Assembly: GCA_963816135.1 (NCBI GenBank)
Contig: CAWFJD010000017.1
Span: 1,128,128-1,192,127 of the forward strand
From: an uncultured Chloroflexia bacterium
Lineage (GTDB): Bacteria > Chloroflexota > Limnocylindria > Limnocylindrales > CSP1-4
DNA length: 64,000 nucleotides
Reading direction: 5' to 3'
Shown: positions 18,276 to 63,728 of the stretch, piece by piece
How positions within the stretch are numbered: position 1 is the first letter of the stretch
Layout of the letters: every line of letters begins with the position of its first letter
Made by a program: the position numbers and the translations under genes
Notes under the pieces: model-generated
What the model saw: the letters and a program-made list of their open reading frames with translations, nothing else
What the model was told of the DNA's origin: nothing
Databases searched by the model: none

Positions 18276-20543
18276 CTAGGCCGCCGGCCGACGATCCAAG
18301 GCCACAGCGAGCGGCTGCGGACGGCCGAAGAGGTAGCCCTGACCGAAACCGACGCCTAACGTGGCGAGCATGTCCGCCTCCGCTTCTGTCTCAACGCCCT
18401 CGGCCAGGACCGCGCAACCGACGTTGGATGCGAATCCCACGATGCTTCCGACCAGGGCCCGCTTGGCGGGATCGTCGTCCACGCCGCGGACCAGCACGAT
18501 GTCGAGCTTGAGGATGTCGGGCTCGATTTCGAGAATGTGCCGGAGGCCGGCGTAGCCGGCGCCCACGTCGTCCACCGCGATCCTGGCGCAGCCGCGGAGT
18601 CCGCTCAGCGACGTGCGGAGTTCGACGTAACTCTCGACCGCATCCCGCTCCGTGATCTCGATCACGACCGGGCATCGCGCCTGTTCCAGCAGGCCTCCGA
18701 TGCCGCCGCCGGTGACCAGTTCGGGCGACGCGTTCAGGCTGAGGTAGGTGCCCGCCGGCAAGCCGGCCGCGGACCCAAGAGCGGCATCGATCGTCACGCG
18801 TTCAAGCGCGACACCCAGCCCGGCTCGCGCCGCCTGGGCGAAGCGCACGTCGGGCGGAACGCCGTCGTCGAACCGGGTAAGCGCTTCGTGCCCGACGATC
18901 CGCCGCGTCGCGAGGTCGATGATCGGCTGGAACACGATCCGAAACGCACGAGCTTCAATGATCTGCGCCAGCTCCTGACGTACGGTTCGCTCGCGCGCCC
19001 GCGCCTCCAGCTTCGCTCCGAGGATGGCACCGGCGAGCAGGCCGAACTGGCGCGCGGTCTCGACCCGCTCCTCACGGACGTCGCTCCGGCCGTCGACCGA
19101 AGCGAGGCTGATCCTGCCGAGCAGGCGCTCGCCGAACAGGACCGGACCGCTGCAGGCCATGTGGAGGCCGCCTCCTCGAAGCGCCCCGGCCCACGGATCC
19201 GAGCGGTCCTCGAGCGACTCGTACCAGGCGCCAACCATGGCTCGTGTGCGAAAGTCGGCGGCGACTTCGGCGGGCTGGGTTTCCCCGATGACGGCGCCGG
19301 GCACCGGGCCCACCTGGGCAAGCAGCGTGCTGCTGCCGTCCTCTTCGAACGCGAGAATGGCCGCCTGGGCAACCCCCTCGGCCTCGACCGCGAGCTCGCA
19401 GATCCGGCGTGCCATATCCTCCACCGTTCCGCTCGCGTCGAACCGGACGAGCGAGGTCAGCACCAGCGAGCGGTGACGGATCTCGCGGGCGAGCTCGCCG
19501 GCGGCTGCGATCGACTCGGCGTGGGCGGCGCGCTCGCGGATCACGAGCAGCCACTGACGTACGAGCGCGAGCACGACGACGGTCACCGCTGTGACCTCCA
19601 CGAGGGGCTCGGCGGGCGTGGAGTGGGCAAGCACGATGGCCACGACCGATCCGCCGACGGCGAGGAGCGGATAGACGTCGACCATCGTCCGCCCGTAGCG
19701 ATCCAGGGCGGCCGTCGGTTGGGGTCGACGGTTCCACGTTACGCAGCCCCAGGCCACGCTCAGGATGGCCACGGAGAACCCCCAATCCAGGGGCGTGACT
19801 GGCGCGGTCCGTCCGCCGACGAGCATGTCGAGCCAGAGCAGCCACATCGCGCCGAGAAGGAGGAGGCCGTCAAGCACGGCGTAGGGGCCCCACACGGACG
19901 GCGTCAGTCCGCCGGCGAACAGGACGAGGTAGCCGGCGGCTGAGCACGCGACGAACGCCAGCGCCACCGCCGCGGCGGCGGGTATCGCGGGATCGGGATG
20001 GGGCATGAGAATGAGCGGCTGCCAGGCCGGAGCGAGCACGCAGGCTATGGCTCCGGTCACGATCAGGTAATCGAGGACGAGTTGTCCGAGCGTCGCGCGA
20101 TCGAGGTAGGCCGCGAACGCCCGGAGGAGGACGACCGCCGCGATCGCGAGCGCGATAAGCAGCAGGATCGCCGCCGGACCACCCGCCATCGCCTCCGAGT
20201 CGGGCGCGATTCCCCACGCGGCCATCCCGACGCTCCCCACGCCGAAGGCGAGAGCCAGGCCGCCCGGCAGCCAGCGCCGCCCGGCTCGTGCGGCGCGCCA
20301 CATCACAAGCATCGCGATCAAGGCCGCGACCGTCGTCGCGACTTGCTGGAACACGTCGAGGGGAACGGCCCAGGATCGTGGGCCCAGAGCGGCTCCGACT
20401 GCGGTAATAGAGATAGCCACGAGGGCAGCAAGGAGGGATCGACTTGCCAGACGGAGCGCCCTCGGGGAGAGGGACGGCTCCGCGCTTGGGATCCCGATGG
20501 AGCCGTCCTGGCGCATCACCGGCCGTCTCGCGTCGCGAAGCAC
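18276..20543 (-). CDS. Membrane-anchored EAL-domain protein (putative c-di-GMP phosphodiesterase) with a central sensor-like domain
   Basis: 755 aa. The N-terminal ~300 aa are polytopic. The C-terminal EAL domain has the motifs QPIIDL...GHEALTRF, ...EITERD..., ...DDVGAGYAGLRHILEIEPDILKLD... and GVETEAEADMLATLG. Confidence 0.8.
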   Translation of the reverse strand: MLRDARRPVMRQDGSIGIPSAEPSLSPRALRLASRSLLAALVAISITAVGAALGPRSWAVPLDVFQQVATTVAALIAMLVMWRAARAGRRWLPGGLALAFGVGSVGMAAWGIAPDSEAMAGGPAAILLLIALAIAAVVLLRAFAAYLDRATLGQLVLDYLIVTGAIACVLAPAWQPLILMPHPDPAIPAAAAVALAFVACSAAGYLVLFAGGLTPSVWGPYAVLDGLLLLGAMWLLWLDMLVGGRTAPVTPLDWGFSVAILSVAWGCVTWNRRPQPTAALDRYGRTMVDVYPLLAVGGSVVAIVLAHSTPAEPLVEVTAVTVVVLALVRQWLLVIRERAAHAESIAAAGELAREIRHRSLVLTSLVRFDASGTVEDMARRICELAVEAEGVAQAAILAFEEDGSSTLLAQVGPVPGAVIGETQPAEVAADFRTRAMVGAWYESLEDRSDPWAGALRGGGLHMACSGPVLFGERLLGRISLASVDGRSDVREERVETARQFGLLAGAILGAKLEARARERTVRQELAQIIEARAFRIVFQPIIDLATRRIVGHEALTRFDDGVPPDVRFAQAARAGLGVALERVTIDAALGSAAGLPAGTYLSLNASPELVTGGGIGGLLEQARCPVVIEITERDAVESYVELRTSLSGLRGCARIAVDDVGAGYAGLRHILEIEPDILKLDIVLVRGVDDDPAKRALVGSIVGFASNVGCAVLAEGVETEAEADMLATLGVGFGQGYLFGRPQPLAVALDRRPAA

Positions 20544-21010: not shown

Positions 21011-23572
21011 ATGACGGCTGTCAGAAGCCGTGTTGTCAGGACGATCGGCTGCGGGATCGCGAGCCTGCTGATGGTGGCCGCGCTGCCTTTGGCGGCCTTC
21101 GCCGTGACGCCTGTCGTAACCCAATACGCGATGTCGCCTTCGCCCATCGCCGCGCCCGCTTCCCTTGCCGCGGGCGCAAACGTTTCGATCACCGTGTCGG
21201 CCGAAACGGCCACCAATAGTCTGGTTCCCGGCGCGGTCATCTTCCTGTCGTTCACCCAGGCGACTGGAGGCGGAACGGCCTCCGTCGGCACGACGAGCCT
21301 CGGCAAGACGCCCGTTGCCTTCACCGCGGCATCGGGCACGGTGACGGTCACGTACACCGCCCCGGCCGTGTTGCCGGCTAACGGCCGTGACACGCTCAAG
21401 GCCGCCGACGCCAAGTCGCTGCCCACGATTTCGACCACGGACACCTACGACTTCGCCGCGCCGCTCAGCTACGTGTGGTCGCCGGATCCGATCGCCGCGC
21501 CCGGTTCCGTGGCTGCGGGTAGCACGGTTTCACTCACCGTGACCGCGGAGAACGCGACGGCCGCCCCGGTCCCGAACGCGACGGTCTATCTGTCCTTCGT
21601 CCCGGCGACAGGCGGCGGTTCGGCGACGGTGGGTACCACTGCCCTGACCGCCACGCCGACGGCCTTCGTGGTTGGGGCTACGGGCCAGCTCGCGGTCACC
21701 TACCAGGCGCCTGTGGCGTTGCCGGCAAGCGGCACCGACACGATCGCGGCCCAGCAGACGCCCACGAGCGCCAAGCGGACCGACAGCTACTCCTTCGGAA
21801 CGCTGGGCTCGATCACGTTCTCTCCCAGCCCAATCGCAGCCGCGGGTTCGCTGACGCCCGGGCAAACCGTGGCGGTCACACTCGAGGCCAAGGATGTCGG
21901 CGGTAATCCCGTTGCCGGCCAGGCGCTCTTCCTCACCTTCGTGCCGGGGGCCAATGGCGGCACGGCGATGTTCGGGACTCGGGCGCTCTCGGCGACGCCG
22001 ATTCAAATCAAGACAGACAGCGCCGGCCAGGTGGTGATTCAGTACGCGGCCCCGACCATGGCGGGTGCGACCGGCACCGATACCCTCACGGCCGGCGACG
22101 CCAAGACCAGCCCGACCTTGTCGGCAACCGACAACTACAGCGCCTCGGCGGGTAGCGGCGGGCCCGGTCCGCTCAACCACCTGGTCCTGAGCCCGGCACA
22201 CGCGACCGTGAACCCAGGAGTGGCCCAGGCTTACACCGCTGCCGGTTTCGACGCCAACGGCGTCGCTCTCGGCGACGTGACCTCGGCTACCACCTTCACG
22301 ATCGCCGGCGGCACGTGCACGGCCAACTCCTGCACGGCCACGGCGGCCGGAGATCATACGGTCACTGGCACGGATGGCTCCGCGACCGGCACCGCGACAC
22401 TTACAGTCAGCGGCGTTCTCGGGGCGGTTTCCGGCGATACCTACCATCCAGTTACCCCCGTCCGTCTCCTGGACACCCGGGCCGGCAACGGCCACTCGGG
22501 GCAGCTCGTGGCCAACACTCCCATCACGTTCCAGATCACGGGCCGCGGCATCCCGGCCGGAGCCACCGCGGTCACCGGCAACCTCGCCGTGACGGGTTCG
22601 AGCGCGTCCTGGGCCGTCTACCTGGGCCCAGATCCGGTCGCCTCACCTTCCAGCTCGACGATCAACTTCGAGAAGGGTCAGACCACGGCAAACGGACTGA
22701 CCGTCGCGTTGAGTTCCACAGGCTCCCTATCGGCGACATACATATCCACCGCGGGCAACACGACCGACCTCGTGTTCGACGTGACGGGTTACTTCACGAC
22801 CGATACGACGGGAGCCACCTACCACCCGATGGACCCGGCTCGCCTTCTCGATACCCGAGCGGGCAACGGTCTCTCGACCCGGCTGAGCGCCAACACGCCG
22901 GTGACCTTCCAGATCACCGGCCGCGGCGGGGTGCCGGCTGGCGCCACGGCGATTACCGCCAACGTCACCATTGTCGATGAGACGGCCGCCTGGGCGGTCT
23001 ACGTTGGCCCGATCCCGACCGCCAGCCCGACCACTTCGACCATCAACTTCAATGCCGGCGACGTCAAGGACAACAACTTGACCGTGGAACTGGGAAGTGG
23101 CGGCACCTTGTCTGCCACCTATCTGTCGAACGCGGGCAACACCACGGATCTGGTTCTCGATGTGACCGGCTACTACACCGCGGACCTCACCGGTTCGGAG
23201 TTCGTGCCGATCACCCCGACCAGGCTCCTGGACACTCGCTCCGGCAACGGCTTGTCCGGCATGTTTAGCGCCAACACCCCGCGATCCTTCCAGGTGGGCG
23301 GTCGCGGCGGCATACCGGCAAGCGCCACGGGCGTGACCGGGAACGTCGCCGTGGTCAACGAGACGGCCTCCTGGGCCGTCTTCGTGGGGCCCGATCCGAT
23401 GGCCAGCCCAACAACTTCAACGCTCAACTTCATCGCGGGCCAGGTGGTCGCGAACGGGATGACCGTGGCTCTCGGGTCCGGCGGAACCCTCAGCCCAACC
23501 TACATCTCCACGGCGGGCAACACCGCCGATCTGGTCTTCGACGCCACGGGCTACTTCGTGGCAGCGGGCTAA
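21011..23572 (+). CDS. Secreted protein: signal peptide, 3 Ig-like (Big-type) repeats, a Big_2-like domain, and a C-terminal triple ~126-aa repeat module
   Basis: 853 aa. The signal peptide is MTAVRSRVVRTIGCGIASLLMVAALPLAAFA. There are three ~115-aa units of the form SP.PIAA.GS...G..V..TV.A.......PV.....FLSF....GG..A.VGTT.L..TP......G...V.Y.AP......G.DT, then a Big_2-like segment. The protein ends in three repeats that each begin YHP.TP.RLLDTR.GNG and end DLVFDVTGYF. Confidence 0.75.
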   Translation: MTAVRSRVVRTIGCGIASLLMVAALPLAAFAVTPVVTQYAMSPSPIAAPASLAAGANVSITVSAETATNSLVPGAVIFLSFTQATGGGTASVGTTSLGKTPVAFTAASGTVTVTYTAPAVLPANGRDTLKAADAKSLPTISTTDTYDFAAPLSYVWSPDPIAAPGSVAAGSTVSLTVTAENATAAPVPNATVYLSFVPATGGGSATVGTTALTATPTAFVVGATGQLAVTYQAPVALPASGTDTIAAQQTPTSAKRTDSYSFGTLGSITFSPSPIAAAGSLTPGQTVAVTLEAKDVGGNPVAGQALFLTFVPGANGGTAMFGTRALSATPIQIKTDSAGQVVIQYAAPTMAGATGTDTLTAGDAKTSPTLSATDNYSASAGSGGPGPLNHLVLSPAHATVNPGVAQAYTAAGFDANGVALGDVTSATTFTIAGGTCTANSCTATAAGDHTVTGTDGSATGTATLTVSGVLGAVSGDTYHPVTPVRLLDTRAGNGHSGQLVANTPITFQITGRGIPAGATAVTGNLAVTGSSASWAVYLGPDPVASPSSSTINFEKGQTTANGLTVALSSTGSLSATYISTAGNTTDLVFDVTGYFTTDTTGATYHPMDPARLLDTRAGNGLSTRLSANTPVTFQITGRGGVPAGATAITANVTIVDETAAWAVYVGPIPTASPTTSTINFNAGDVKDNNLTVELGSGGTLSATYLSNAGNTTDLVLDVTGYYTADLTGSEFVPITPTRLLDTRSGNGLSGMFSANTPRSFQVGGRGGIPASATGVTGNVAVVNETASWAVFVGPDPMASPTTSTLNFIAGQVVANGMTVALGSGGTLSPTYISTAGNTADLVFDATGYFVAAG
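22439..23569 (+). repeat. C-terminal tandem triplet of an uncharacterised ~126-aa domain (copies 1-3 of 9 in the window)
   Basis: The per-repeat consensus is [YF].P..P.R.LDTR.G.G........P.TF...G..G.P..A.AVTGN.TV......W.V..GP.......STINF..G....N.LTV.L...G.LSATY.S..G...DLV.DVTGY[FY]. It was read directly from the translation. Confidence 0.7.
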
Positions 23573-23668: not shown

Positions 23669-24196
23669 CTAGCCTCCGGCGGCGGCGGTGTCGCTGCGAT
23701 AGGCAGTCGGCACGGCGGCTGGATCGGTGTCCTCTCCGAGGGCCTCGACCGCCTCGCGGATCTGTCGGTCTTCGGTCTCGCAAAGATCGACGAAACGGAA
23801 GGCGACCAGATGCTGCGTAAGCCGCGGCGACGAGCTCAGCTCGTCCACCCGGACCACCTGGGCGCGGCAGTCCAGCGCTTCGTGGGGAGTCAGTTGCACT
23901 TCGACCCGGAACACCCCGCCGACTTCGAGCGGCGCGGAGGTCAGGCACACGAAGCCGCCCCGGCTGATGTTCGTCGTCCGCACGGCGAGCAACGGCCTGT
24001 CCGCGGACAGATGCAAGTACGCAGGGATGGCGAGCGTAAAGCGTGCGGCCGTACGCCGGTCGGCGTCGTTCTGGTTCGTGGCTGAGCCCTCTCGAGATCT
24101 CTCGGCCGATCGTCTGAGCGCGACTAGCTTAGGCCACGGCGCGGTGACGCGGGAGGGCTGGCGGTACCGGTAACATCCGACCCTTTGGTCCCCCAA
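23669..24196 (-). CDS. PilZ-domain protein (putative c-di-GMP receptor)
   Basis: RRTAAR (RxxxR) followed about 30 residues later by NISRGG (a D/N-x-S-x-x-G motif) and a beta-barrel-like C-terminus. The start codon is uncertain. Confidence 0.55.
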   Translation of the reverse strand: MGDQRVGCYRYRQPSRVTAPWPKLVALRRSAERSREGSATNQNDADRRTAARFTLAIPAYLHLSADRPLLAVRTTNISRGGFVCLTSAPLEVGGVFRVEVQLTPHEALDCRAQVVRVDELSSSPRLTQHLVAFRFVDLCETEDRQIREAVEALGEDTDPAAVPTAYRSDTAAAGG

Positions 24197-28614: not shown

Positions 28615-29673
28615 CTACGAGATGGCGATCATCCGCTCCAGGGCCTGTCGGGCGCGGCCGGCGACATCTTCCGGCACGGAGATCTCGAACTGGTCCAGCG
28701 CCAGCGAGTCGCGCAGCTTCTCGAGCGTGGTCAGCTTCATGTACTGGCAGATCGCCTCGCGGTTCACCGGCACGAAACGCTTGCCCGGTGCCTTGAGCGC
28801 GAGCCGGTGGAGGATGCCGATTTCGGTCGCGATGAGGAATGCCGGCGCGGCCGAACGCTCCGCGTAGGTGACCATGCCCTCGGTCGAGAGGACGTGGACG
28901 TCTTCACCCGCGGCGGCAGCGGCATCGATGACCTGGCTCGTGCAGCCGCACTCCGGGTGGATCAGAAGCTCGGCGCCGGGCTCCGCGCGATGCCACTCCT
29001 CCACGTCCGCCGGCCGGATGCCCGCGTGGACGTGGCACTCGCCAAGCCAGAGGATCAGCTTGCGGCCGGTTACTCGCCGGAGCCACATTCCCAGGAACAG
29101 GTCCGGCAGGAAGAGGATTTCGCGGTCGGCGGGAATGGCCTCGATGACGCCGCGGGCGTTGCCGGAAGTGCAGCAGTAGTCGCTCTCGGCCTTGACGGCG
29201 GCGCTCGTGTTCACGTACGAAACCACGACCGCGCCCGGATGCTCGGCCTTCCAGGCCCGGAGCTGATCCACGCTGATCGAGTCGGCGAGCGAGCAGCCGG
29301 CGGCCAGGTCCGGGAGGAGAACGCGCTTCGAGGGCGAGAGGATCTTGGCGGTTTCGGCCATGAACGCGACGCCGCAGAACACGATCGTGGACTGGCGGGC
29401 GGACGCGGCGACGCGGGAGAGCATCAGGGAGTCGCCCACGTGATCCGCCACGTCCTGGATTTCCGGCCGCTCGTAGGAATGGGCCAGGATGACGGCGTCG
29501 CGCTCGGCCGCAAGGCGGCGAATCTCGGCCTGGAGCTCGGGGAAGGTCGCGGGATCTCCCGCGGGCGGGATGGCCGTCGAGCGGGCGGCCTCCAGGCGCG
29601 CGAGCTGGCCGGCCGAGACGTCGACGGAGGACGAAGCGGTCGATGACGCCGAGGCCGAATGTTGGTCGGTCAC
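28615..29673 (-). CDS. nadA: Quinolinate synthase NadA
   Basis: Full-length match to NadA (AVILAHSYERPEIQDVADHVGDSLMLSR...FMAETAKILSP...SYVNTSAAVKA...CTSGNA...GECHVHAG...HPECGC...). The GTG start at 29673, preceded by GAGGT, overlaps the nadC stop (GTGA). Confidence 0.85.
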   Translation of the reverse strand: MTDQHSASASSTASSSVDVSAGQLARLEAARSTAIPPAGDPATFPELQAEIRRLAAERDAVILAHSYERPEIQDVADHVGDSLMLSRVAASARQSTIVFCGVAFMAETAKILSPSKRVLLPDLAAGCSLADSISVDQLRAWKAEHPGAVVVSYVNTSAAVKAESDYCCTSGNARGVIEAIPADREILFLPDLFLGMWLRRVTGRKLILWLGECHVHAGIRPADVEEWHRAEPGAELLIHPECGCTSQVIDAAAAAGEDVHVLSTEGMVTYAERSAAPAFLIATEIGILHRLALKAPGKRFVPVNREAICQYMKLTTLEKLRDSLALDQFEISVPEDVAGRARQALERMIAIS

Positions 29674-30603
29674 CCGATTACCTCGAGCGAGACGTCGAGC
29701 GCCTTGACCGAATGCGTGAGCGCCCCGAGCGAGACGAAGTCGACGCCGGTCTGGCCGACCGCGCGAAGGTTGTCGAGCGTGATGCCGCCGGAGGCTTCGG
29801 TTTCGACCCGGCCGCCGACGATCTCGACCGCGGCGCGCAGCATCTCGACGCTCATGTTGTCGAGCAGTATCCGGTCGACCCCGGCTTCGAGCGCTTCGCG
29901 GACCTCGTCGAGCGTTTCGGCCTCGACTTCGAGACGCAGCTGTGGCGCGATGTGCGCGAAGGCGGGCGACCGCCGGAGCGATGCCGCCGGCGAGGCGAAG
30001 GTGGTTGTCCTTGACGAGGAGCGCCTCGCCGAGGCTCATCCGGTGGTTCGTGCCGCCGCCGCACCGGACCGCGTACTTCTCGAGCTCGCGCAGACCGGGA
30101 GTGGTCTTGCGAGTGTCGAGCAGCGTGGCGCCCGTCCCTTCGAGTTCGGCGACGCATCGGGCGGTCAGCGTTGCGATGCCGCAGAGGCGGCCGAGGATGT
30201 TCAACGCCGTCCGCTCGCCCGCGAGAACGGCTCGGGCGGGACCTGTGATGCGGGCAATCTCGGCGGGAACATGGTCCACTCGCTCGCCGTCCTGGACCTC
30301 GGCCGTGATCGTGACCGCGGGATCGAGCGCGGCGAACACGGCCCGGACGACCGGCAGGCCGCAGATCACTCCGGGTTCCTTGACCAGAAGAGAGGTGCGG
30401 GCGATGGCCTGGGCCTCGAACAGGCCTTCTGAAGTGGGGTCGCCCGCCGCCAGGTCCTCGGCGAGGGCCAGGGCCACGACCCGCTCCACGGCCTGCGGGT
30501 CGGGCGGGCGGACGAGGCCGGGAGTGACGGCGGCTGCGGCGTCTGCTGCGGCTGCGGCGGCCGCCGCGGCGGCGTTGAAGGAGTCCACGAGTTCGCCAGA
30601 CAT
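29670..30603 (-). CDS. nadC: Nicotinate-nucleotide pyrophosphorylase (quinolinate phosphoribosyltransferase) NadC, with one apparent 1-nt frameshift near 29950-29990
   Basis: The N-terminus (DPTSEGLF...LLVKEPGVICGL...LAGERTALNILGRLCGIATLT...TRKTTPGLRELEKYAVRCGGGTNHRMSLGEALLVKDNHLRLAGGIAPAVARLRAH) is in the frame starting at 30603. The rest (IAPQLRLEVEAETLDEVREALEAGVDRILLDNMSVEMLRAAVEIVGGRVETEASGGITLDNLRAVGQTGVDFVSLGALTHSVKALDVSLEV) is in the frame ending at stop 29670. Confidence 0.8.
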
Positions 30604-34557: not shown

Positions 34558-36759
34558 ATGGCGCGGAATATGGACCGAGCCGTGCAGGTTCCGACTCTCC
34601 CGGGCGCGTCTTTCCGGCTGCCCCCGCAACTCGAAGGGCTGCGCCGCCTTTCGTACAACATGTGGTGGGCCTGGAACCCGCGAGCCCGGGCGCTCTTCAG
34701 CCGTATCGATGGCCTGTCATGGTCTCGATACCGCAACCCGGTGGAGGTCCTCTCGCAGCCGATCGCCTGGTCGGAGCTGCTCGACGACCCGGCCTTCATG
34801 GCCGAGTACACCCAGATCCTCGCCGAGTTCGACCGGTACATGGCCGGCGGCCGCGAGCACTGGTTCAACCGTGAGTACGGTGGGGCGCTCTCCAAACCCA
34901 TCGCCTATTTCTGCGCCGAGTACGGCTTCCACGAATCGCTCGGCATCTATTCGGGCGGTCTCGGAGTCCTGGCAGGCGACCACATCAAGTCCGCGAGCGA
35001 CATGGCCATGCCGTTTGTCGGCGTGGGCCTGCTCTACAAGCACGGGTATTTCCGCCAGACGATCGACGCCGACGGCCACCAGGAGCACGCCTACCCGGAC
35101 TACGACCTCGCCGAGCTGCCGATCCTGCGGGTCCTTGGACCAGACGGTGAGCCGCTGACGGTCTCGGTCGAGTTGCCGGGACGAGACCTGTTCGCCGCCG
35201 TGTGGCTCGTCCAGGTTGGCCGCGTACCCGTCCTGCTGATGGATACGGACATCCCGGACAACGCGGAATCGGACCGGCCGGTCACCCAGATCCTGTACGT
35301 CCGCGGCCGCGAGATGCGCCTCCACCAGGAGCTCGTCCTGGGCGCCGGCGGTGTCCGAGCTCTCAAGGCCCTCGGCATCGACCCCGCCGTCTGGCACCTC
35401 AACGAAGGCCACTCCGCGTTCCTCCTCGTCGAGCGAACGAGGGCGCTCGTGGCCAAGGGCGTGCCACTCGAAGAAGCCCTGGATCGGGTCCGATCCAACT
35501 CCGTCTTCACCATCCACACCCCGGTCTCAGCCGGTAACGAGCGCTTCGACGCGGACCTGGTTCGCCGGGTCGCCGGGCCTCTCTACGAGGGCGACGGCCG
35601 AAAAGGCACCGGCGGCGTGCCGATGGATCGCGTCCTGGAGCTCGCCCGCGGCGTGGACGGCGACACTCGCTCGCTCGACATGACGGCCCTCTCGCTGCGC
35701 ATGTCGATGGCGGCCAACGCCGTGAGCAAGCTGCACAGCGTCACGGCCAACAACACCTGGCAGGGTCTGGGCAACAAGCAGATCCTCGCCGTCACGAACG
35801 GCGTCCACATGCCCACCTGGGTCGGCCAGCCGATGCGCTATCTGTTCGAGCGCCATCTCGGCGCCGAGCTCGACAACGTCGACGCCCGCGACGGCGCGGG
35901 CGCCTTCTGGGAGCGGACGGACCAGATCCCGGACGTGGACCTCTGGGAAGCGCACCAGCGCCAGAAGCTCGAACTGATGATCTTCGCCCGCAACCGGCTG
36001 CGCCACCAGTTCGCCCGCCACGGCGAATCGCCGAACACGCTCGAAGAACTCGAAGACGTGCTCGACGTCGGCACGCTGACCATCGGCTTCGCCCGCCGGT
36101 TCGCGACCTACAAGCGGGCCGCGCTCATCTTCTCGGACATGGATCGCCTCGCCCGGCTGCTCTGGGACAAGGACCGGCCCGTCCAGATCATCTTCGCCGG
36201 CAAGGCCCATCCCGCCGATCGACCCGGCCAGGGCGTGATCCAGGAGATCTTCGCCCGGTCGCGTTCGCCGCAGCTGCGCGGTCGAGTCTTCATGCTCGAG
36301 GACTACGACATGCGCGTCGCCCGGTTCATGGTCCAGGGCGTGGACGTCTGGCTCAACAACCCGCGCCGCCCCCTGGAGGCGTCGGGGACCAGCGGCATGA
36401 AGGCCTCGGCCAACGGAGTCGCCAACCTGTCGGTCCTCGACGGCTGGTGGGACGAGGGCTGGGTCGGCGACAACGGCTGGGCCATCGGCGGCCGCGAGAC
36501 GAACCCCGACGAAGGCGCTCAGGACTACAACGACGCCCAGGATCTCTATCGCCTCCTCGAGCAGGAAGTCGTGCCGCTCTACTACAACCGAACCGAGGAC
36601 GACGTGCCCGAGGGCTGGACGGCAGAGATGCGCCGCTCCATCGGCAGCACGCTCTGGCGGTTCTCCACGGTTCGGATGCTCCACGAATACGTCGAGTGGA
36701 TGTACATGCCCGCCGCCGGAGTCCAGCCGAAGAAGCCTTCAGGCGTCCCCGGCCGGTAG
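34558..36759 (+). CDS. glgP: Alpha-glucan phosphorylase (GlgP, GT35, short alpha-glucan-family type)
   Basis: 733 aa, intact frame. Reads MARNMDRAVQVPTLPG...LSYNMWWAWNPRARALF...FCAEYGFHESLGIYSGGLGVLAGDHIKSASD...GTSGMKASANGVANLSVLDGWWDEGW, diagnostic for the alpha-glucan phosphorylase family. Confidence 0.85.
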   Translation: MARNMDRAVQVPTLPGASFRLPPQLEGLRRLSYNMWWAWNPRARALFSRIDGLSWSRYRNPVEVLSQPIAWSELLDDPAFMAEYTQILAEFDRYMAGGREHWFNREYGGALSKPIAYFCAEYGFHESLGIYSGGLGVLAGDHIKSASDMAMPFVGVGLLYKHGYFRQTIDADGHQEHAYPDYDLAELPILRVLGPDGEPLTVSVELPGRDLFAAVWLVQVGRVPVLLMDTDIPDNAESDRPVTQILYVRGREMRLHQELVLGAGGVRALKALGIDPAVWHLNEGHSAFLLVERTRALVAKGVPLEEALDRVRSNSVFTIHTPVSAGNERFDADLVRRVAGPLYEGDGRKGTGGVPMDRVLELARGVDGDTRSLDMTALSLRMSMAANAVSKLHSVTANNTWQGLGNKQILAVTNGVHMPTWVGQPMRYLFERHLGAELDNVDARDGAGAFWERTDQIPDVDLWEAHQRQKLELMIFARNRLRHQFARHGESPNTLEELEDVLDVGTLTIGFARRFATYKRAALIFSDMDRLARLLWDKDRPVQIIFAGKAHPADRPGQGVIQEIFARSRSPQLRGRVFMLEDYDMRVARFMVQGVDVWLNNPRRPLEASGTSGMKASANGVANLSVLDGWWDEGWVGDNGWAIGGRETNPDEGAQDYNDAQDLYRLLEQEVVPLYYNRTEDDVPEGWTAEMRRSIGSTLWRFSTVRMLHEYVEWMYMPAAGVQPKKPSGVPGR

Positions 36760-36839
36760 GTCAAGCGGGCAAGGGACCATTCGAGGTTCGTCTTGCGCGG
36801 CGCCTCGCCAGGTCGACCGGCAAGCGCGGTGGGGCTTTG

Positions 36840-56533: not shown

Positions 56534-59500
56534 CTACTTCAGGAAGTATCCGGTGACGTCGAAGACGAGATCCGTGGTCGCGCCCGACGGACCCATGTAG
56601 GTTGCTGTCAGCACACCTCCAGGGCCAAGGGCGACGGACAGGCCGTTGCCCTTGGATTGACCGCCCAGGAAGTTGACCGTCGAGGTGCCGGGCGAGGCTT
56701 CGGCGACCGGGCCCAGGTAGACGGCCCAGCCCGACTTGTCGTTGACGACCGTGACGTTGCCGGTGACCGCGAGAAGCCCATCGGGGAGGGCGGCCTGTCG
56801 AGCTATCGGGAAGGTGCTCGGACTGTTGGCCAGCAGGCAGCTCGGCAGACCCAAGTGGGCTCGCGTGTCCAGCAGCCGAGTTGGCGCTATCGGCACGAAG
56901 GCCGAGCCCGACATGTCGGCCGTATAGAAGCCCGTGACGTCGAAGACGAGATCGGTTTTCGCGCCGGCGGGTCCCATGTACGTCGCGCACAGCCGTCCCG
57001 CGGAGTCGAGCGAAACGCTCAGGTTGTTGCCGGCAACCTGCCCCGACGTGAAGTTCACAGCCGAGGTCGATGGTTTGCTCGTGGAGACCGGCCCGAGATA
57101 GACCGCCCAGGCCGCCGACGGATTTACCACCGTTACGTTGCCGGTGACCGCCTTCGCCTCCAGGGGAAGTCCGTTCCGACCGGCCACCGAGAAGCACGCG
57201 GGCGTGTTAGCCGAGAGTCTCGCCGGGAGACCGATCGCGTGCCGCGTATCCAGCGAGCGCACAGGATCGATCGGGTGATAAGTCTGGCCGCTGGCGTCCG
57301 TGGCGTAGAAACCGGTGACGTCGAAGACGAGGTGGGTCGTCGCCCCGGCCGGGCCCATGTAGGTCGCCGACAGCGTTCCATGGCTGGACAGGGCGACGGT
57401 CAGGCCATTGCCCGCCGTCTGGTTGCCGACGAAGTTGATGGTCGAGGCCGGCGGATGGGCGATTGGATCAGGCCCGAGGTAGGCCGCCCAGGGGGCCGAC
57501 GGACTGACCACGGTGAGGTTCCCGGTGACCGCGATCGCCTTGTCCGGAATGCCGCTCCGGCCGGTGATCTGGAACGTCTTCGGGCGTGTTAGCCACCAAC
57601 TTGCCCGACAGCCCGTTGCCGGATCTGGTGTCGAGGAGCCGGACAGGGTTGATGGGGTGATACGTAGACGAACCGGCGGGCAACGAGATGACACCACCGA
57701 CGGAGTTCGAGGGCGCGGAGGCCGGGCCCCAACCCACGGCGTTGCCAGCCTGAACCGTGAAGGTGTACGCCGTGTTCGCGGCGAGGCCCGTTGCCGTGCA
57801 ATTCAGGGCACCGGTCGTGGTGCATGTCTTGCCGGCCGGCGAACTCGTAACCGAGTAGCTCGTGATCGCGCTGCCGCCGTCTGAAGCGGGCGCGGACCAG
57901 CTTACGGTCGCCCCGCCGCTGCCGAGAACTGCCGTGACACCGGTTGGGGCACCCGGCACGGTCATCGTCGCGCTGATGGTGACCGTTACCGTGCCCGTGG
58001 CCGTCCCGCTTTTGCCGTCCGAGACCGTGTAGGAGAACGAGTCCGACCCCACGTATCCCGACTGCGGCGTGAACCTGATCTTTCCCTTATCCGTGCCACT
58101 CCCGACGATTACGACAGTCCCGTGATCGCCACTCGAGACCGCCGTGACGCTCAGGGTGTCGCCGTCCGGATCGCTGTCATTGGCGAGCAGCGTTGCCGGC
58201 GCGATGAGGAGTGCCGTGTTCACGAGCGTGCTCGCCGCGTCGTCGACCGCCACCGGCGGATGATTTGGAGTCACGGTGATCGAAACGGTGGCCGTGTTGC
58301 TCTGAAGGCTGGCGTCGCTGGCCACGTAGGTGAACGAGTCCGAGCCGGAGAAGCCGGTGGCTGGAACATAGTTGATCGTGCCGTTGACGACGGACGCCGT
58401 GCCGTGTGACGGCTGAGTCACGAGCGTGGCCGTCAGGCTGTCTCCGTCGGCGTCGGTATCGTTGTCGAGGACGCGGATGGTGACCGACGATCCCTGGGCC
58501 GTGGTAGCCGAGTCGTCGACCGCGATGGGAGCATGGTTGACCGTAGCAACCGTGACCGTCACGGAGCCCGTGGCCGTCCCGCCCAGGCCGTCAGACACGG
58601 TGTAGCTGAACGAGGCGGGGCCCAGGTACGCAGCCTCCGGGGTGAACAGGATCTTGCCCAGGTCGGCGCCGCTGGCGACGATTTCGACCGTGCCGTGGAC
58701 GGGGCTCGAGACCCCCGCGACTGCCAGGACATCACCATCGGGGTCGGTGTCGTTGGCGAGTAGTGTCGCAGGCGCGATCAGGAGCGGCGTGTCGATGACG
58801 GTCGTTGCCAGGTCGTTACCCGCCACCGGCGGATCGTTGACCGGAGTGACCGTGATCGTGAAAGACTGAGTCGGGCTCGCGTCTACCCCGCCGCCCGCGG
58901 TTCCGCCGCTGTCGACGAGATGGAGGACGAGCGTGGCCGATCCGTTGGCGTTGGGGGCCGGCGTGAAGCTCAGGGTCCCAGTAGGGTCAACGGCAGGGCC
59001 GGCGCTGAAGAGTGCGCCGTTCGTGTTCGAGTCGATCACGAACGAGAGGTTCTGGCTCGCCTCGTCGGCAGGACCCGCGCTCATGCCCGTGGCCCAGCCC
59101 AGGAGTGAAGCCGGACCCGAATCCTCGGCGACGGTCTGGTCCGCACCCTTAGCGAACGAGGGCGGGTCGTTGACCGGCGTGACCGTGATCGTCACGGTGG
59201 CCGTGTTGCTTGGAAGGCTGCCGTCGCTCGCCTGGTACGTGAACGAGTCGGCGCCGTTGAAGTTGGCCGCCGGGGTGTAGGCGAAGATCCCGTTGCTCAA
59301 GAGGTTGCCGGTGCCGTGCGTTGGACCGCTCACGAGAATGGCGGTCAGGCTGTCGCCGTCGGCGTCGGTGTCGTTGGCGAGGACGTGGATGGCGACCGAC
59401 CCGTCCTCGGCCGTCGTGGCGGAGTCGTTGACCGCGACCGGGGCATGGTCGACCGGCGCCGATGGCGTGACGGCTCCGGACGGGTCCGATTCGGGTCCGT

Positions 59501-60923
59501 CACCGACGTTGCTGTGGGCCCGAACGGTGAAGGTATAGGCCGTCCCGTTGGTGAGGCCCGGGACGTCGGCACTCGTCGTGTTGCCGACCTGGACGACCAG
59601 CCCACTCTGAGCCGTCCCGCCGACGTACGGCGTGACGACGTAGTGGTCGATCGTGCCGCCGTTTGAGGGTGCCGCCGTCCATGTGACATTCGCGGTCGCG
59701 TTCCCCGCGGTGGCGCTGACGGAGGTCGGTTTGCCCGGGAGTTGGGGCGTCACACTCACCATGTCGTACGTGAGATCGAACTGACTCGAAGCGTCGGTCT
59801 CGTACAGGCCCGTCCAAGGGTTGTAGGTCCGCGCGTGGATGCGGTCATTGTCCGGATCGAACACGTAGTAGCGGAGCGTGCCCATCGTGTTCGTCCCGGT
59901 ACCCATCGAGCGAGACTGGTAGTCGCTCAGGACTTGATACACCGGCGTCGAAAGGCAGGCCGAGTTCGTATGCATGTCGGTCCGGTGCGCCTCGCCGCTC
60001 GTGTAGCTGTCGTCGTCGTAGTTGTGGCCGGCGATGACCAGGAAGACATTGCAGCGCGGCGCGATCAGGTTCGTGAACACCGTCGCGGGGGTTGTGGCGG
60101 AGGCGCCGGGAATATCGTCGTACGAAGGCGGGTCGGTGGAGTAGTCGGTCATCCGACTGCCGTCCGTCTCGAGGAAGCCGTGCGTCGCGATGATCGCCCG
60201 GTAGCCCGGATGGGCGTCGAGGACGCGTCCCGCCCAGGCCACGGCGAAGTTCGGGAGCCCGTATTCCAGGTTGACGACGAGGAAGTCCATGCCGCCGGCG
60301 GTGAACGTCCCCCAGTTGTCCATGCTTTCCCTGTCCGGGTCGGTGCTCAGGGCGTAGGGCTGTCCGGGGCCGAGATATCCGCCGTATTGAGCCGTGCTCC
60401 ATGCGCTCTGCCAGGGGGAGCGGGATGAGAAGCGGCTCGGCGGGAAGGTAGATTCGAAGAGAGCCGCGTCGCCATCCGCTAGACCCAGGTCGTGGTTTCC
60501 CGGGAGAACGCTGTAGGGGAAGTTGGCGTTGTCGAGGATCTTGAACGCGTTGCTCGCCGTGGTGTACGCCGACTGGCTCGTGTTCGTGTTGACCACGTCG
60601 CCGAGCTGAGCCGCCCACACCGAGCGCAGCGACGCCTTGCTATCGGCGATCCATTGAATCTGGGCCACGCCCCGCTGACGCTCGTCCGAGTCGCCCTCGA
60701 ACATGTTCTGCGTGTCCGGGATCGCGACGAACGTGAACTCCGTGGAGCCGACAGGCGTCGTCGCGGCGAGGGCGGGCGGGGCCGTGAAAGCCTGCAGCAA
60801 TCCTGCCCCCAGGGCAGCCACGACGACGATCCGCCGAGCTCTGCCTGCGGCGGACTGCCGACCGGCAACAGGCACCGTAACCCGCGGCACCCGACCCACC
60901 CTGAACACCAAAGGCCTCCTCAC
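56534..60923 (-). CDS. Giant secreted surface protein (one gene with a 1-nt frame shift near 57590): signal peptide, calcineurin-like metallophosphoesterase, FN3, 5 cadherin-like/VCBS-type Ig repeats, FN3, and the C-terminal triple ~126-aa repeat
   Basis: The signal peptide is ...VVVAALGAGLLQAFTAPPALA. The metallophosphoesterase has GNHDLG and ATHGF motifs. The FN3 reads SATAGNATANVTWTAAPSNGGTIDHYVV...YTFTVRAHSNVG. Five ~100-aa units carry VNDPPV...LANDTDADGD/LANDTDPDGD. The upstream ORF ends in STYHPINPVRLLDTRSGNGLSGKLVANTP followed by frame garbage. The repeat continues as KTFQITGRSGIPDKAIAVTGNL... in the 56534..57697 ORF. Confidence 0.7.
56537..57680 (-). repeat. C-terminal tandem triplet of the ~126-aa domain (copies 4-6)
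   Basis: Same consensus as at 22439..23569 (YHP..P.R.LDTR...G ... DLVFDVTGF[YF]). Confidence 0.7.
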
Positions 60924-61151: not shown

Positions 61152-63728
61152 TCAGGGCACGTAGTAGCCGGAGACGTCGAAGACGAGATCGGTGCCGTTG
61201 CCGGGGTTCGACATATACGTTGCGGACAGTGTTCCGGACCCCGCCAGCGCCACGGTCAGGCTGTTGCCACGGACCTGGCCCGCATCGAAGTTGATCGACG
61301 ACGTCGTCGGGGCCGCCGTCGCGTCCGGGCCGACGAAGACCGCCCACGGACCCGTCTCGTTGACGACGGTCAGATCGCCCGTGACCGCTCGCGCGGTGGC
61401 CGGCACGGCGTCCTTGCCGCCGATCTGGAAGGTTACCGGCGCATTGGCCCGCATCGGGCCCGCAACGCCCGCCCCGCTACGCGTATCGAGCAATCGGAGA
61501 GGCGTGATCGGCACGAAGGAGACTCCCGTCCCATCGGCCGTGAAGTAACCGGTCACGTCGAACACCAGGTCGGTGCTATTGCCGGGGTTGGACATGTACG
61601 TGGCGCTCAGCGTGCCGCCCGAGCCGAGGGGAACGGTAAGGTTGTTGCCCTGCGTCTCCCCGGCCGAGAAGTTGACCGTTGACGTGGTGGGCGCGGCGCT
61701 GGGCACGGGACCGAGAGCCACGGCCCATGCCGAAGTGGGATCCACCACCGTCAGATTGCCGGTGACCCCTACGGCGTTCGAAGGGACTCCATTTCGGCCG
61801 GCCACCGCAAAGGTCCGCGGCGTGTTGGCCAGGAACCTGCCGGTCAACCCGTTGCCGGCTCGTGTATCGAGCATCCGCGTGGGGCTCATGAGGTGGAATG
61901 TGTCGCCGGACACCGGGGCGAAATAACCCGTGACGTCGAACACGAGGTCGGTGCGACTTCCCGAGGTGGACATGTAGGTAGCCGAGAGGGATCCGGTCGG
62001 CGACAGCGGCACGGTCACGCCGTTGCCCGCGACCTGACCGGCGGCGAAGTTGATCGTCGAAGTGCTCGGCGTCGAAGTCTCCTGCGGTCCAAGGAATACG
62101 GCCCAGCCGTTGGTGGATCCGGTCACCGTCAGATTTCCGGTCACCGCGGTCGCGTTCGAGGGTATGCCGGCTCGGCCGGCAACCTGGAATGTCGCCGGCG
62201 TATTCGCCTGAAGGCTCGCGGGCAGGCCATTCCCAGTCCGGGTGTCCAGAAGGCGAGTCGGAGCGACGGCGTGGTAGGTCGACTTCACGATGGGAGCGGC
62301 CGGTGTCGCCGGCGCGGAATCCGCCGAGGGCGGCCCTTCACCGGCCAGATTCGCCGCAGTCACGCTAAACGTGTACGTCGTCCCGTTGATGAGCCCCGTG
62401 ATGGTGCAACTCGTGGCGCCGCTGGTCTGGCAAATCTCTCCGGCCGGGCTGGAAGTGGCCACGTAGCCGGTGATGGGAGATCCGCCGTCGCTGGCGGGAG
62501 CGCTCCACGAGACCGTGGCCGATTGATCGCCGGCGATGGCCTGGACGTTGGTAGGAGCACCTGGCGGCAGGGACGGTGTAGGCGTCGGGGTCGGCGTCGG
62601 CGTTGGGGTCGGGCGCGGGGTCCTGATCGGCGTTGCGGTGGCGCCTGCGACGGCATTGTGACAATTGAGGGTCCCGCTGTCCGTGAACGAACCTGTCGCG
62701 TCGATGAATTTCCAGCTCATGCTGGCCTGGTGCAGGGTCATCGCCAGGATGCCGAAGCTCGTCGTGTCCTGGACGACGCTGTTGGGCGCCAGCGCCGCGA
62801 TGCCCGTGTGATTGGAGCCCCCGGTGCCTACCGTGAACTGGGTGATGCCCGTGGTCATGTCAACCAGGCCGGTTGGCGTCTGGGGAAGGAACCGCTCGTA
62901 GATGTGGTCGTGGCCATCGAGGACGACGTCGGCTTGAGCCGCATACAGCTGCTGCCAGAGCGGCAATGAGTTGATCGAAGCTCGGCCTCCGGAGCTGAAT
63001 AGCGGGATATGCCAGTAGGCCAGCGTGCACTGTCCCATGTGAGATCCAAGGTCACTGGCGAGCCACTTGCTCTGCGGCGACCCTGGTTGGCATCCGCCAA
63101 CATCCGCGCAGTTCGAGTTCAGGGCGATGAGGTGCCAGGCTCCCACGTTGTAGCTGTACCAGCCCTGACCCGGGGTTCCAGCTGCCGAACCGAAGTAGCC
63201 AAAGTAGCCGGCTCCGTTGAGATTCGTTTGATCGCAGCCGGTGACGGTGCCGCCTCCGTTGTCTGTCAGGTACTCGTGGTTGCCGGGCACCGGATGCGTG
63301 ATCGACTTCACCCTGCCCCAGCTGGTGTCATAGGACTGCTGATACGCGGACAGACTGCCGCAGTAGTACTGGTTGTCCCCCAGTGACAGGACCGCCGAGT
63401 AGCCGTGACCGGCCAGAAGGTCAGCCGTCGCGTTCTGCTCGCAGCCAGTTCCGGTGCCGCTTCCACCGCGGTAGTTCGGGTCCAGCGGATCGCAAGCGAT
63501 GTCGCCGGCGGCGGCGATGACCGGGTCTCCGGCCGCGGCCGCGGCCGAGGAGACGGACGCGTACTGAGCGAGCCAGGGCACGACGGTGAAGGCGCTCACA
63601 GCCAGGGCCAGACCGGCGATCATCCGCACGGCTGCAGTGGCCACTCCGGGAGTTGATCTTCGGCCGCCGCGTTCAACCCGGCCGGCCGGGCTTGCGTCAA
63701 AGTCGGTACGGGTGGGGCGCAAACGCAT
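61152..63728 (-). CDS. Secreted metallophosphoesterase (purple-acid-phosphatase-like), FN3, then the C-terminal triple ~126-aa repeat
   Basis: Signal peptide (VRMIAGLALAVSAFTVVPWLAQYA). The metallophosphoesterase motifs are GDIACD, GDNQY, GNHEY and GHDHIYERF. The FN3 reads PGAPTNVQAIAGDQSATVSWSAPASDGGSPITGYV...YTFSVTAANLAGEG. Three repeats then begin STYHAVAPTRLLDTRTGNG, TFHLMSPTRMLDTRAGNG and SFVPITPLRLLDTRSGAG. Confidence 0.75.
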   Translation of the reverse strand: MRLRPTRTDFDASPAGRVERGGRRSTPGVATAAVRMIAGLALAVSAFTVVPWLAQYASVSSAAAAAGDPVIAAAGDIACDPLDPNYRGGSGTGTGCEQNATADLLAGHGYSAVLSLGDNQYYCGSLSAYQQSYDTSWGRVKSITHPVPGNHEYLTDNGGGTVTGCDQTNLNGAGYFGYFGSAAGTPGQGWYSYNVGAWHLIALNSNCADVGGCQPGSPQSKWLASDLGSHMGQCTLAYWHIPLFSSGGRASINSLPLWQQLYAAQADVVLDGHDHIYERFLPQTPTGLVDMTTGITQFTVGTGGSNHTGIAALAPNSVVQDTTSFGILAMTLHQASMSWKFIDATGSFTDSGTLNCHNAVAGATATPIRTPRPTPTPTPTPTPTPSLPPGAPTNVQAIAGDQSATVSWSAPASDGGSPITGYVATSSPAGEICQTSGATSCTITGLINGTTYTFSVTAANLAGEGPPSADSAPATPAAPIVKSTYHAVAPTRLLDTRTGNGLPASLQANTPATFQVAGRAGIPSNATAVTGNLTVTGSTNGWAVFLGPQETSTPSTSTINFAAGQVAGNGVTVPLSPTGSLSATYMSTSGSRTDLVFDVTGYFAPVSGDTFHLMSPTRMLDTRAGNGLTGRFLANTPRTFAVAGRNGVPSNAVGVTGNLTVVDPTSAWAVALGPVPSAAPTTSTVNFSAGETQGNNLTVPLGSGGTLSATYMSNPGNSTDLVFDVTGYFTADGTGVSFVPITPLRLLDTRSGAGVAGPMRANAPVTFQIGGKDAVPATARAVTGDLTVVNETGPWAVFVGPDATAAPTTSSINFDAGQVRGNSLTVALAGSGTLSATYMSNPGNGTDLVFDVSGYYVP
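61155..62300 (-). repeat. C-terminal tandem triplet of the ~126-aa domain (copies 7-9)
   Basis: Same consensus; each unit ends ...DLVFDV[TS]GY[FY]. Confidence 0.7.

Follow-up and report, generated by a model that had tools for sequence, protein, structure and literature searches.

The window analysed here, the whole 64-kb stretch of DNA from an uncultured soil member of the Limnocylindria (Chloroflexota), carries three genes for secreted proteins, designated A, B and C, all of which end in a C-terminal triplet of tandem copies of the same repeat unit. The genes, the individual copies and an interruption in gene B are located as follows:

21011..23572, + strand: gene A, 853 aa, with signal peptide, passenger repeats, Ig-like unit and triplet (open reading frame; hydrophobic N-terminus)
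22442..22795, + strand: copy A1, 118 aa (HMM domain, E 1.4e-59)
22820..23176, + strand: copy A2, 119 aa (HMM domain, E 2.7e-62)
23201..23557, + strand: copy A3, 119 aa; a 4-aa tail precedes the stop codon (HMM domain, E 2.5e-59)
56534..60923, - strand: gene B, 1462 aa after removal of one base, interrupted by a frameshift (open reading frames, Pfam, frame analysis)
57580..57583, - strand: +1 frameshift site, a CCCG run inside copy B1, near 57581 (frame analysis)
57305..57662, - strand: copy B1, 119 aa and one surplus base (recovered by the HMM in two frames, as 57579-57662 and 57305-57610)
56924..57280, - strand: copy B2 (HMM domain, E 1.9e-60)
56543..56899, - strand: copy B3, with a 2-aa tail (HMM domain, E 4.8e-57)
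61152..63728, - strand: gene C, 858 aa (open reading frame; fn3 E 2.6e-16)
61920..62276, - strand: copy C1 (HMM domain, E 2e-59)
61542..61898, - strand: copy C2 (HMM domain, E 7.7e-60)
61161..61517, - strand: copy C3, with a 2-aa tail (HMM domain, E 1.4e-58)

An earlier, sequence-only reading of the window had described these as secreted proteins with otherwise differing N-terminal parts, and the domain layouts bear this out. The passenger of protein A consists of three ~115-aa repeats (residues 36-377) followed by an 83-aa Ig-like unit (residues 385-467); the protein has no Pfam match, and an identical protein is present in NCBI/ENA (P0121). Protein C runs from a signal peptide or anchor through an acid-phosphatase-type metallophosphoesterase, a Pro/Thr linker and an fn3 domain to the triplet. 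Its Pfam Metallophos signal falls just short of the cutoff (E 5.7e-4), and its homologues carry the name ‘acid phosphatase type 7’. Gene B was correctly placed and does have the triplet at its end, but it is not one intact reading frame: an additional base splits it into open reading frames at 57468..60923 and 56534..57697. Deleting one base at 57580..57583 restores the sequence ...ANTPKTFQITG..., a stop-free protein of 1462 aa and a normal first copy; the frameshift is either an assembly indel or the mark of a pseudogene. The restored protein comprises a signal peptide, a putative metallophosphoesterase-like region, fn3, Big_9/cadherin-like repeats, a further fn3 and the triplet. Pfam matches Big_9, Cadherin_4/5 and fn3 here; the region that had been read as metallophosphoesterase-like has no Pfam match.

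Searching the six-frame translation with a profile HMM of the copies recovered exactly nine copies in the window and no others, the same nine, three per protein and C-terminal, as had been counted from the sequence. Domain E-values range from 1e-57 to 1e-62 for the eight intact copies, while the two pieces of copy B1 (E 2.1e-46 and 3.5e-10) align over the full length once the frame is repaired. The unit had been given as ~126 aa, which holds as the repeat period inclusive of a 7-8-aa linker; of this, 119 aa (118 in copy A1) form the conserved core. The motifs reported for its start ([YF]xPxxPxRxLDTR), core (STINF...N.LTV) and end (DLVxDVTGY[FY]) are all present as described, and the module boundaries proposed at 22439-23569, 56537..57680 and 61155..62300 lie ~25 nt or less from the true ones. 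Pairwise identity among the nine copies is 50-72%, with 33 invariant columns, which excludes a chance resemblance.

That the unit is no named Pfam domain, as had been suspected, was confirmed: no Pfam (2025) or NCBIfam (2026) model matches it in proteins A, B and C at E <= 0.1, and no PDB sequence matches the nine-copy profile at E < 0.2. The only Pfam/NCBIfam signals were to Crystallin and bluetail, both at noise level. The literature searched for the motif and for wall-binding modules of Chloroflexota yielded no description of the unit, and a 2025 S-layer preprint was not found to mention Chloroflexota, Actinomycetota, or a jelly-roll or novel type of anchoring. An exhaustive profile search matched 24,921 cluster representatives (50% identity), and members of the family are annotated as hypothetical or named after their other domains. 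Carriers are Limnocylindria (Chloroflexota) and Actinomycetota, including cultured Streptomyces, Arthrobacter and Curtobacterium; named matches fall almost exclusively within these two phyla, the exceptions being two contigs (L034, L048) of a MAG labelled Pleomorphomonadaceae, which are possibly mis-binned. Actinomycetota are regarded as monoderm. The same view is held of Chloroflexota (PMC10608941). Phage genomes (tblastn) and IMG/VR contained no relatives of the unit, and a role for it in receptor binding by phages or in wall binding by endolysins gained no support.

Across the family the copy number is almost always three, and otherwise mostly six or nine. Three copies are found in 48 of 59 protein A homologues and in 132 of the best 150 library representatives, among which seven have six copies, one has nine and four deviate. 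At 76 genome loci, chosen with the motif of a single repeat, 83 arrays are complete; 75 of them contain three copies and eight contain one, with none of two, four or five. In 76 of these 83 arrays, and in 123 of 144 library representatives, the module lies at the very C-terminus and is followed by no more than 2-7 aa. A departure from C-termini had been named as a finding that would speak against anchoring; most modules are indeed C-terminal, but ~15% are N-terminal or internal, some directly after the signal peptide. Confinement to C-termini is nevertheless a poor criterion, since among passenger homologues discussed below the established SLH anchor is N-terminal (P0207, P0225, P0232) and CWB2 is C-terminal (P0196, P0216). 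When copies are compared between proteins, the nearest neighbour in another protein stands at the same position for 134 of 172 copies at position 1, 110 of 172 at position 2 and 103 of 172 at position 3, where ~57 would be expected. On this sequence comparison the repeats are position-specific, with positional orthology, as the repeats of CWB2 are by experiment (PMC4973711). Besides the three triplet genes in the window, at least six loci occur in one MAG, and paralogues with many different passengers are found within the same genomes.

An AlphaFold2 model of the 383-aa triplet (pLDDT 95.3, pTM 0.92), the prediction that the sequence-only reading had called for, gives one rigid all-beta body. 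Each unit is predicted to be an eight-strand jelly-roll-type beta-sandwich, and the three copies with their conserved 8-residue linkers probably fold as a closed pseudo-trimer, a ring geometry that we infer from the pTM together with the co-loss of residues described below. In fold searches the folds nearest to the unit are those of adhesin tips and carbohydrate-binding modules (CBMs), which are binders of external ligands, with similarity both to 8OK3 and to the jelly-roll beta-sandwich of CBMs; viral capsid jelly rolls and nucleoplasmin-type oligomerisers are also resembled. Foldseek comparison of the whole triplet with the PDB gave no whole-module match (TM <= 0.20), and with BFVD one weak match to a giant-virus ‘BclA C-terminal domain-containing’ protein (TM 0.42, query-normalised). 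The near-invariant residues of the unit are polar or charged (R, D, N, S) and recur in a repeated pattern. In a clade of ~30 proteins, copy 3 has lost R8, N48 and D114 and copy 1 has lost S73, N76 and N85, the two sets disappearing together while the same residues are kept at 99-100% at the remaining positions. This co-loss is consistent with composite sites shared by adjacent repeats and with copy 3 touching copy 1, although it is statistically weak, since it amounts in essence to a single evolutionary event within a single clade. The triplet seems to hold three candidate composite polar sites at its repeat-repeat interfaces, in each of which S73, N76 and N85 of a repeat would join R8, N48 and D114 of the repeat before it.

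The proteins to which the triplet is fused are diverse, comprising PQQ and RCC1 propellers, S8 and S53 proteases, GH5, GH18, GH43, cutinase and phosphatases, as well as fn3/PKD/TIG stalks. Some act on the wall, namely an L,D-transpeptidase (YkuD) with PG_binding_1 (P0221) and an M23 peptidase (P0161). A Paenarthrobacter plasmid encodes an RHS protein in the order signal peptide, triplet, RHS repeats; in WapA of Bacillus subtilis, CWB2 wall-binding repeats stand where this protein has the triplet. Further evidence comes from homologues of the protein A passenger that lack the triplet (37-50% identity over residues 36-377): two of them (P0196, P0216) have three CWB2 repeats C-terminally, in the slot of the triplet, and three (P0207, P0225, P0232) have SLH N-terminally. 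The phosphatase of protein C gives a different picture. Only 4 of 120 close homologues carry the triplet, none carries SLH or CWB2, and most stand alone or with PF24517, LamG or fn3, one PF24517-bearing homologue being named ‘DNRLRE domain-containing’. These modules fit a general glycan-binding add-on, and this survey is neutral to mildly against anchoring. A crude hydropathy scan of 192 triplet proteins found a hydrophobic N-terminal segment in 133, a second TM-like segment in only four and an LPXTG-like motif in five. By our reasoning, the succession of enzyme head, stalk and C-terminal module is the layout expected of a basal anchor.

SLH and CWB2 triplets hold proteins at the cell surface in Firmicutes. 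We put at about even the chance that the triplet described here likewise anchors proteins non-covalently to the cell envelope, as a pseudo-trimer that is analogous to those two without being related to them. A resemblance in deployment to SLH or cell-wall-binding modules had been pointed out from the sequence; the analogy has gained comparative support from the copy number, the rigid body predicted for the triplet, the paralogues with many different passengers in the same genomes, the substitution by CWB2 and SLH and the RHS layout, whereas the anchoring itself, and with it the ligand, is what we infer from them. The module would act as a portable cassette on Sec-exported proteins of monoderm Limnocylindria and Actinomycetota. 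Its target would be a polymer in the envelope of the producing cell itself, for instance a secondary wall glycopolymer or a polysaccharide linked to peptidoglycan, and binding to it would retain RHS toxins, adhesin-like stalk proteins and enzymes (phosphatases, proteases and those of peptidoglycan) on that cell. The fuller proposal, which we hold a shade more tentatively, is that the triplet joins SLH and CWB2 as a third class of non-covalent wall anchor, pseudo-trimeric as they are but of unrelated structure. It would be the main means of surface display in Limnocylindria, would be widespread in Actinomycetota, Streptomyces among them, and would recognise a wall glycopolymer through three inter-repeat sites centred on R-x-L-D-T-R.

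The main alternative, which we judge distinctly less probable without regarding it as negligible, is that the triplet is a single-chain, lectin- or CBM-like pseudo-trimer for external ligands, such as environmental polysaccharides, the surfaces of other cells or particles, and that it brings enzymes, adhesins and toxins to substrates or prey. The conserved polar residues are compatible with such a role, the BclA-type protein of a giant virus provides the sole sizeable whole-module match, and PF24517 or LamG-type modules take the place of the triplet in the phosphatase homologues. Arrays of six and nine copies exist as well and suggest lectin-like multivalency, but CBMs vary freely in copy number and are not known to be locked to three. 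Likewise, GH5, GH18, GH43 and cutinase are among the partners, yet carbohydrate-active enzymes form a minority of them, and the YkuD partner acts on the wall of the producer itself. Also arguing against external ligands are the replacement of the triplet by CWB2 and SLH, which are bona fide wall anchors, on the same passenger, and the hydropathy and motif scan, which revealed no other means of cell retention even though many of the proteins look like stalked surface proteins.

Two further explanations dispense with a wall or substrate ligand. The triplet could be a self-assembling or structural module with no specific ligand, either a unit of an S-layer-like lattice or a cap for folding and stability, for which a rigid, compact, all-beta body would be suited and to which the fold likeness to viral capsid jelly rolls and nucleoplasmin-type oligomerisers might point. 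A distant member (P0291) has a short Pfam S_layer_C match (E 1e-8 over 33 residues), but the copies in the window give no such signal, near-invariant polar and charged residues in a repeated pattern are typical of binding sites and not of lattice contacts, and an S-layer subunit would not be joined to dozens of unrelated passengers per lineage; we consider this explanation improbable. Still less credible is a C-terminal secretion or sorting domain that addresses the proteins to a dedicated export or processing machinery in the manner of the T9SS C-terminal domain and is perhaps removed afterwards. It would account for the prevalent position at the extreme C-terminus with a short tail, but not for the modules that are N-terminal or internal. 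Ordinary N-terminal signal peptides are present, the hosts are regarded as monoderm, and inspection of the neighbourhoods found no dedicated partner gene conserved beside the three triplet genes. At ~380 aa the strict triplet is also far larger than known sorting domains.

The family, with its ~25,000 representatives, occurs in two phyla that rank among the most abundant in soil, and neither Pfam nor NCBIfam has a model for it. A name and a function would allow thousands of proteins to be annotated as surface-displayed, would define the surface proteome of the uncultured Limnocylindria and would point to a new wall polymer in Chloroflexota and Actinomycetota, as well as offering actinomycete biotechnology a surface-display tag. 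If the anchoring hypothesis is true, three unrelated folds, those of SLH, CWB2 and the triplet, have converged on a three-repeat pseudo-trimer for wall attachment.

Among known systems, CBM36, CBM35, CBM6 and CBM22 share the jelly-roll fold and are likewise appended to secreted enzymes. CBMs act as independent single modules, whereas the triplet is a single body of fixed three-copy composition whose partners are mostly not glycoside hydrolases, and no Pfam CBM model matches the unit. A second structural parallel is the tip of the MAT fibre protein Bd2133 from Bdellovibrio bacteriovorus (8OK3/8OND), a C-terminal beta-sandwich of ~120 aa that forms a trimer around a three-fold axis (PMC10769870). 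The fold is alike but identity to the unit is only 12-14%, and neither structure is among the matches of the nine-copy profile to all PDB sequences at E <= 10. Furthermore, Bd2133 is a homotrimer in which three chains cap a trimeric beta-helix fibre, while the triplet is one chain, which in proteins A, B and C follows fn3 or Ig-like domains and no fibre.

The closest functional parallels are the wall anchors of Firmicutes. SLH domains are helical with motifs of ~55 aa, unlike the 119-aa beta-sandwich predicted here, and their binding grooves lie between repeats, where one can be degenerate; similarly, the triplet would have three interface sites, of which one is degenerate in one clade. The SLH profile has no match in proteins A, B and C at E <= 0.1, although the same search detects P0207, P0225 and P0232. 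CWB2 has an alpha/beta fold, again different from the all-beta fold predicted for the triplet, its ligand is the anionic polymer PSII, and its hosts are Firmicutes as opposed to Chloroflexota and Actinomycetota. The CW_binding_2 profile does not match proteins A, B and C, while P0196 and P0216 match strongly.

SLH (PF00395) consists of three tandem motifs that form a pseudo-trimer and bind wall polysaccharide (PMC4973711; PMC6081394). The CWB2 module (PF04122) of the Cwp proteins of Clostridioides difficile has three tandem, non-identical and position-specific repeats that are needed as a unit (PMC4973711), and positional orthology is seen here too. CWB2 and the triplet are alike in terminal placement, in the number of repeats and in the slot that they occupy on homologues of the protein A passenger; both are partnered with adhesins, proteases, peptidoglycan enzymes and RHS toxins, and both occur as many paralogues per genome. 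In both, a protein ends or begins with three tandem repeats that are not interchangeable, a likeness of functional analogy and not of homology.

Three secreted proteins encoded in the window, here called A, B and C, each terminate in three tandem copies of one unnamed unit of 119 aa (118 aa in A1, the first copy of A). The genes are as follows.

21011..23572, + strand: gene A, an ORF of 853 aa that carries the triplet
56534..60923, - strand: gene B, split into the overlapping ORFs 57468..60923 and 56534..57697
61152..63728, - strand: gene C, an ORF of 858 aa that carries the triplet

The sequence-only reading had described a tandem triplet in three secreted proteins, nine copies in all, and an HMM built from these copies and run against the six-frame translation of the window bears this out, finding exactly nine and no tenth. 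The eight intact copies are recovered at E-values of 1e-57 to 1e-62, and the frameshifted B1 as two pieces. The copies share 50-72% pairwise identity and 33 invariant columns, and every motif named in that reading is present in them. The repeat of ~126 aa that it proposed is real, but the conserved core is the 119-aa unit, with linkers of 7-8 aa between copies and only 2-4 residues after the last. Gene B does carry the triplet, as claimed, but its ORF is broken within the first repeat by one additional base in a CCCG run at 57580-57583 (near 57581, - strand); in frame analysis, a one-base deletion restores ...ANTPKTFQITG... and a stop-free protein of 1462 aa. P0004 and P0026, fragments of further triplets on a contig equal in length (1,428,169 bp) to the one with protein A, both begin within a repeat, which makes assembly indels a plausible cause.

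The repeat is a genuine, very large and unnamed domain family, used as an obligatory three-repeat module. Matches to Pfam-A (2025) and NCBIfam (June 2026) in the three proteins fall in their N-terminal parts only (fn3, Big_9/cadherin-like repeats and a weak Metallophos signal); the repeat itself has none at E ≤ 0.1, in agreement with the sequence-only reading, which did not recognise it as a named Pfam domain. A profile search over all PDB chain sequences gave nothing under E 0.2, full-text searches of the literature returned no description of the module, and named relatives are called “hypothetical protein”, “beta strand repeat-containing protein” or after their other domains. Exhaustive HMMER searching of 1.84 billion cluster representatives places 24,921 proteins in the family at E ≤ 1e-3 and 3,028 at E ≤ 1e-30. 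The repeat is most closely matched in MAGs of the Chloroflexota class Limnocylindria from fens, peat and soils, and a 1.43-Mb NCBI/ENA contig encodes a protein identical to A. More distant relatives occur in Actinomycetota (Iamia, Gaiellaceae, Acidimicrobiales, Pseudonocardiaceae), and plasmids of cultured Streptomyces, Arthrobacter, Paenarthrobacter, Curtobacterium and Aeromicrobium also bear the module; searches of phage genomes and IMG/VR yielded no relative. Repeat relatives with 55-71% identity in a Pleomorphomonadaceae MAG carrying an alphaproteobacterial label (L034, L048) and a Micrococcales MAG (L004) probably lie on mis-binned Limnocylindria contigs rather than in true hosts.

Exactly three copies are present in 48 of 59 homologues of protein A and in 132 of the top 150 library representatives, of which seven have six copies, one has nine and only four deviate; in both sets the linker is nearly always 8 residues. 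A third sample, of 76 genome loci, is free of triplet bias, because they were selected via a single-repeat motif, and here three copies occur in 75 of 83 uncut arrays, one in eight, and two, four or five in none. Of 144 representatives, 123 have the module at their extreme C-terminus, 8 directly behind the signal peptide and 13 at an internal position. By sequence, the copies are position-specific, with the nearest neighbour in another protein holding the same position for 134, 110 and 103 of 172 (copies 1, 2 and 3) against ~57 expected; identity of 63% within proteins versus ~50% between them shows some within-protein homogenisation as well. Three triplet genes lie in these 64 kb, two of them adjacent, and a strict motif scan found at least six triplet loci in one MAG.

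AlphaFold2, given the 383-aa triplet of protein A and a 32-row alignment of triplets, returned a model with eight strands per repeat (mean pLDDT 95.3, pTM 0.92). Such a pTM over three domains implies that the predicted repeats hold a fixed mutual arrangement, the geometry of which we infer. Foldseek found no solved chain like the whole triplet in the PDB (TM ≤ 0.20) and, among viral models, a sole match at TM 0.42 to a giant-virus protein annotated BclA C-terminal domain-containing; the tip domain of Bd2133, a Bdellovibrio bacteriovorus fibre protein, may be very distantly related to the repeat in structure. Across 516 copies, P6, R8, D11, R13, G17, N48, P70, S73, N76, F77, N85, D114 and G117 are near-invariant. 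In one old, diverse clade of ~30 proteins, copy 3 has other residues in place of R8, N48 and D114, and copy 1 in place of S73, N76 and N85, while these six residues are 99-100% conserved at the other positions. N48 of copy 3 and N85 of copy 1 are both absent in 32 proteins, and only one or the other in 2 and 1. On the simplest reading, the six residues would together make up a single composite site between adjacent repeats, and copy 3 would contact copy 1, closing the triplet into a pseudo-trimer in which one of three interface sites would be dispensable; because the co-loss is essentially one evolutionary event, it is suggestive rather than proof.

The triplet is very likely a rigid, pseudo-trimeric module by which secreted proteins bind a ligand. 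We give an even chance to its acting as a non-covalent tether to the envelope of the producing cell itself, analogous to the wall-binding modules SLH and CWB2. Homologues of the protein A passenger repeats (residues 36-377, 37-50% identity) wholly lack the triplet; three C-terminal CWB2 repeats take its slot in P0196 and P0216, and P0207, P0225 and P0232 begin with SLH domains. This substitution argues for anchoring and against the main rival, a lectin- or CBM-like module for external targets, which seems to us possible, if rather doubtful. The folds nearest to the repeat bind external ligands, however, and the arrays of six and nine copies resemble lectin multivalency. Homologues of the protein C phosphatase also count, at most mildly, against anchoring, being usually standalone or joined to LamG, fn3 or PF24517 (the domain of a protein named “DNRLRE domain-containing” by NCBI); among 120 of them, four have the triplet and none has SLH or CWB2. 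Nor is there a dedicated partner gene among the neighbours of A, B and C; the products of these neighbours include EAL, PilZ and Kelch proteins, an esterase and enzymes of alpha-glucan metabolism.

Fusion partners are highly varied and include PQQ and RCC1 propellers, parallel beta-helices, S8 and S53 proteases, M23 peptidase, YkuD with PG_binding_1, GH5, GH18, GH43, cutinase and metallophosphatases, together with stalk-type CAP, Kelch and fn3/PKD/TIG/Big domains; Pfam recognises fewer than half of the passengers. A crude hydropathy scan assigns a hydrophobic, signal-like segment to the N-terminus of most full-length members; very few show a second membrane segment or an LPXTG-like motif. P0291, a relative outside the window with six copies fused to RCC1 repeats, matches Pfam S_layer_C (PF05124, E 1e-8) over 33 residues (640-672) within its repeat region; the window copies have no such match. 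Protein A itself carries three ~115-aa passenger repeats (residues 36-377; 21116-22141, +) and an 83-aa Ig-like unit (residues 385-467; 22163-22411, +), all without Pfam match. The latter recurs several times, at 44-67% identity, in many unrelated large proteins (among them P0128, P0136, P0166, P0194 and P0222) and looks like another unnamed mobile stalk domain.

Adhesin-like gene A is flanked by genes for a membrane EAL-domain protein (18276-20543, -) and a small PilZ-domain protein (23669-24196, -), a hint that this surface protein is under cyclic-di-GMP control. Elsewhere in the window are three Kelch-repeat (galactose-oxidase-like beta-propeller) proteins (36-1406, 2769-4058 and 36447-38165, all +) and an alpha-glucan/glycogen metabolism cluster (34558-56456) comprising a phosphorylase with DUF3417, two GH13, two GH57, an ABC permease and a 1177-aa alpha-amylase-like protein whose long C-terminal half is without annotation. 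A single 662-aa ORF (28615-30603, -) joins quinolinate phosphoribosyltransferase, its C-terminal domain matched over the first 76 of 169 positions only, to quinolinate synthase NadA; it represents either a fusion of nadC with nadA or two genes merged by another indel.

In the RHS protein WP_243542105.1 from a Paenarthrobacter plasmid, the order is signal peptide, triplet, RHS repeats, and Bacillus subtilis WapA has CWB2 wall-binding repeats at the corresponding place. On sequence tests, the module belongs to neither SLH nor CWB2, nor to any of the Pfam CBM families. Its obligatory three repeats nevertheless have a precedent in SLH and CWB2, which likewise require three repeats and are described as, or proposed to be, pseudo-trimers (PMC4973711; PMC6081394).
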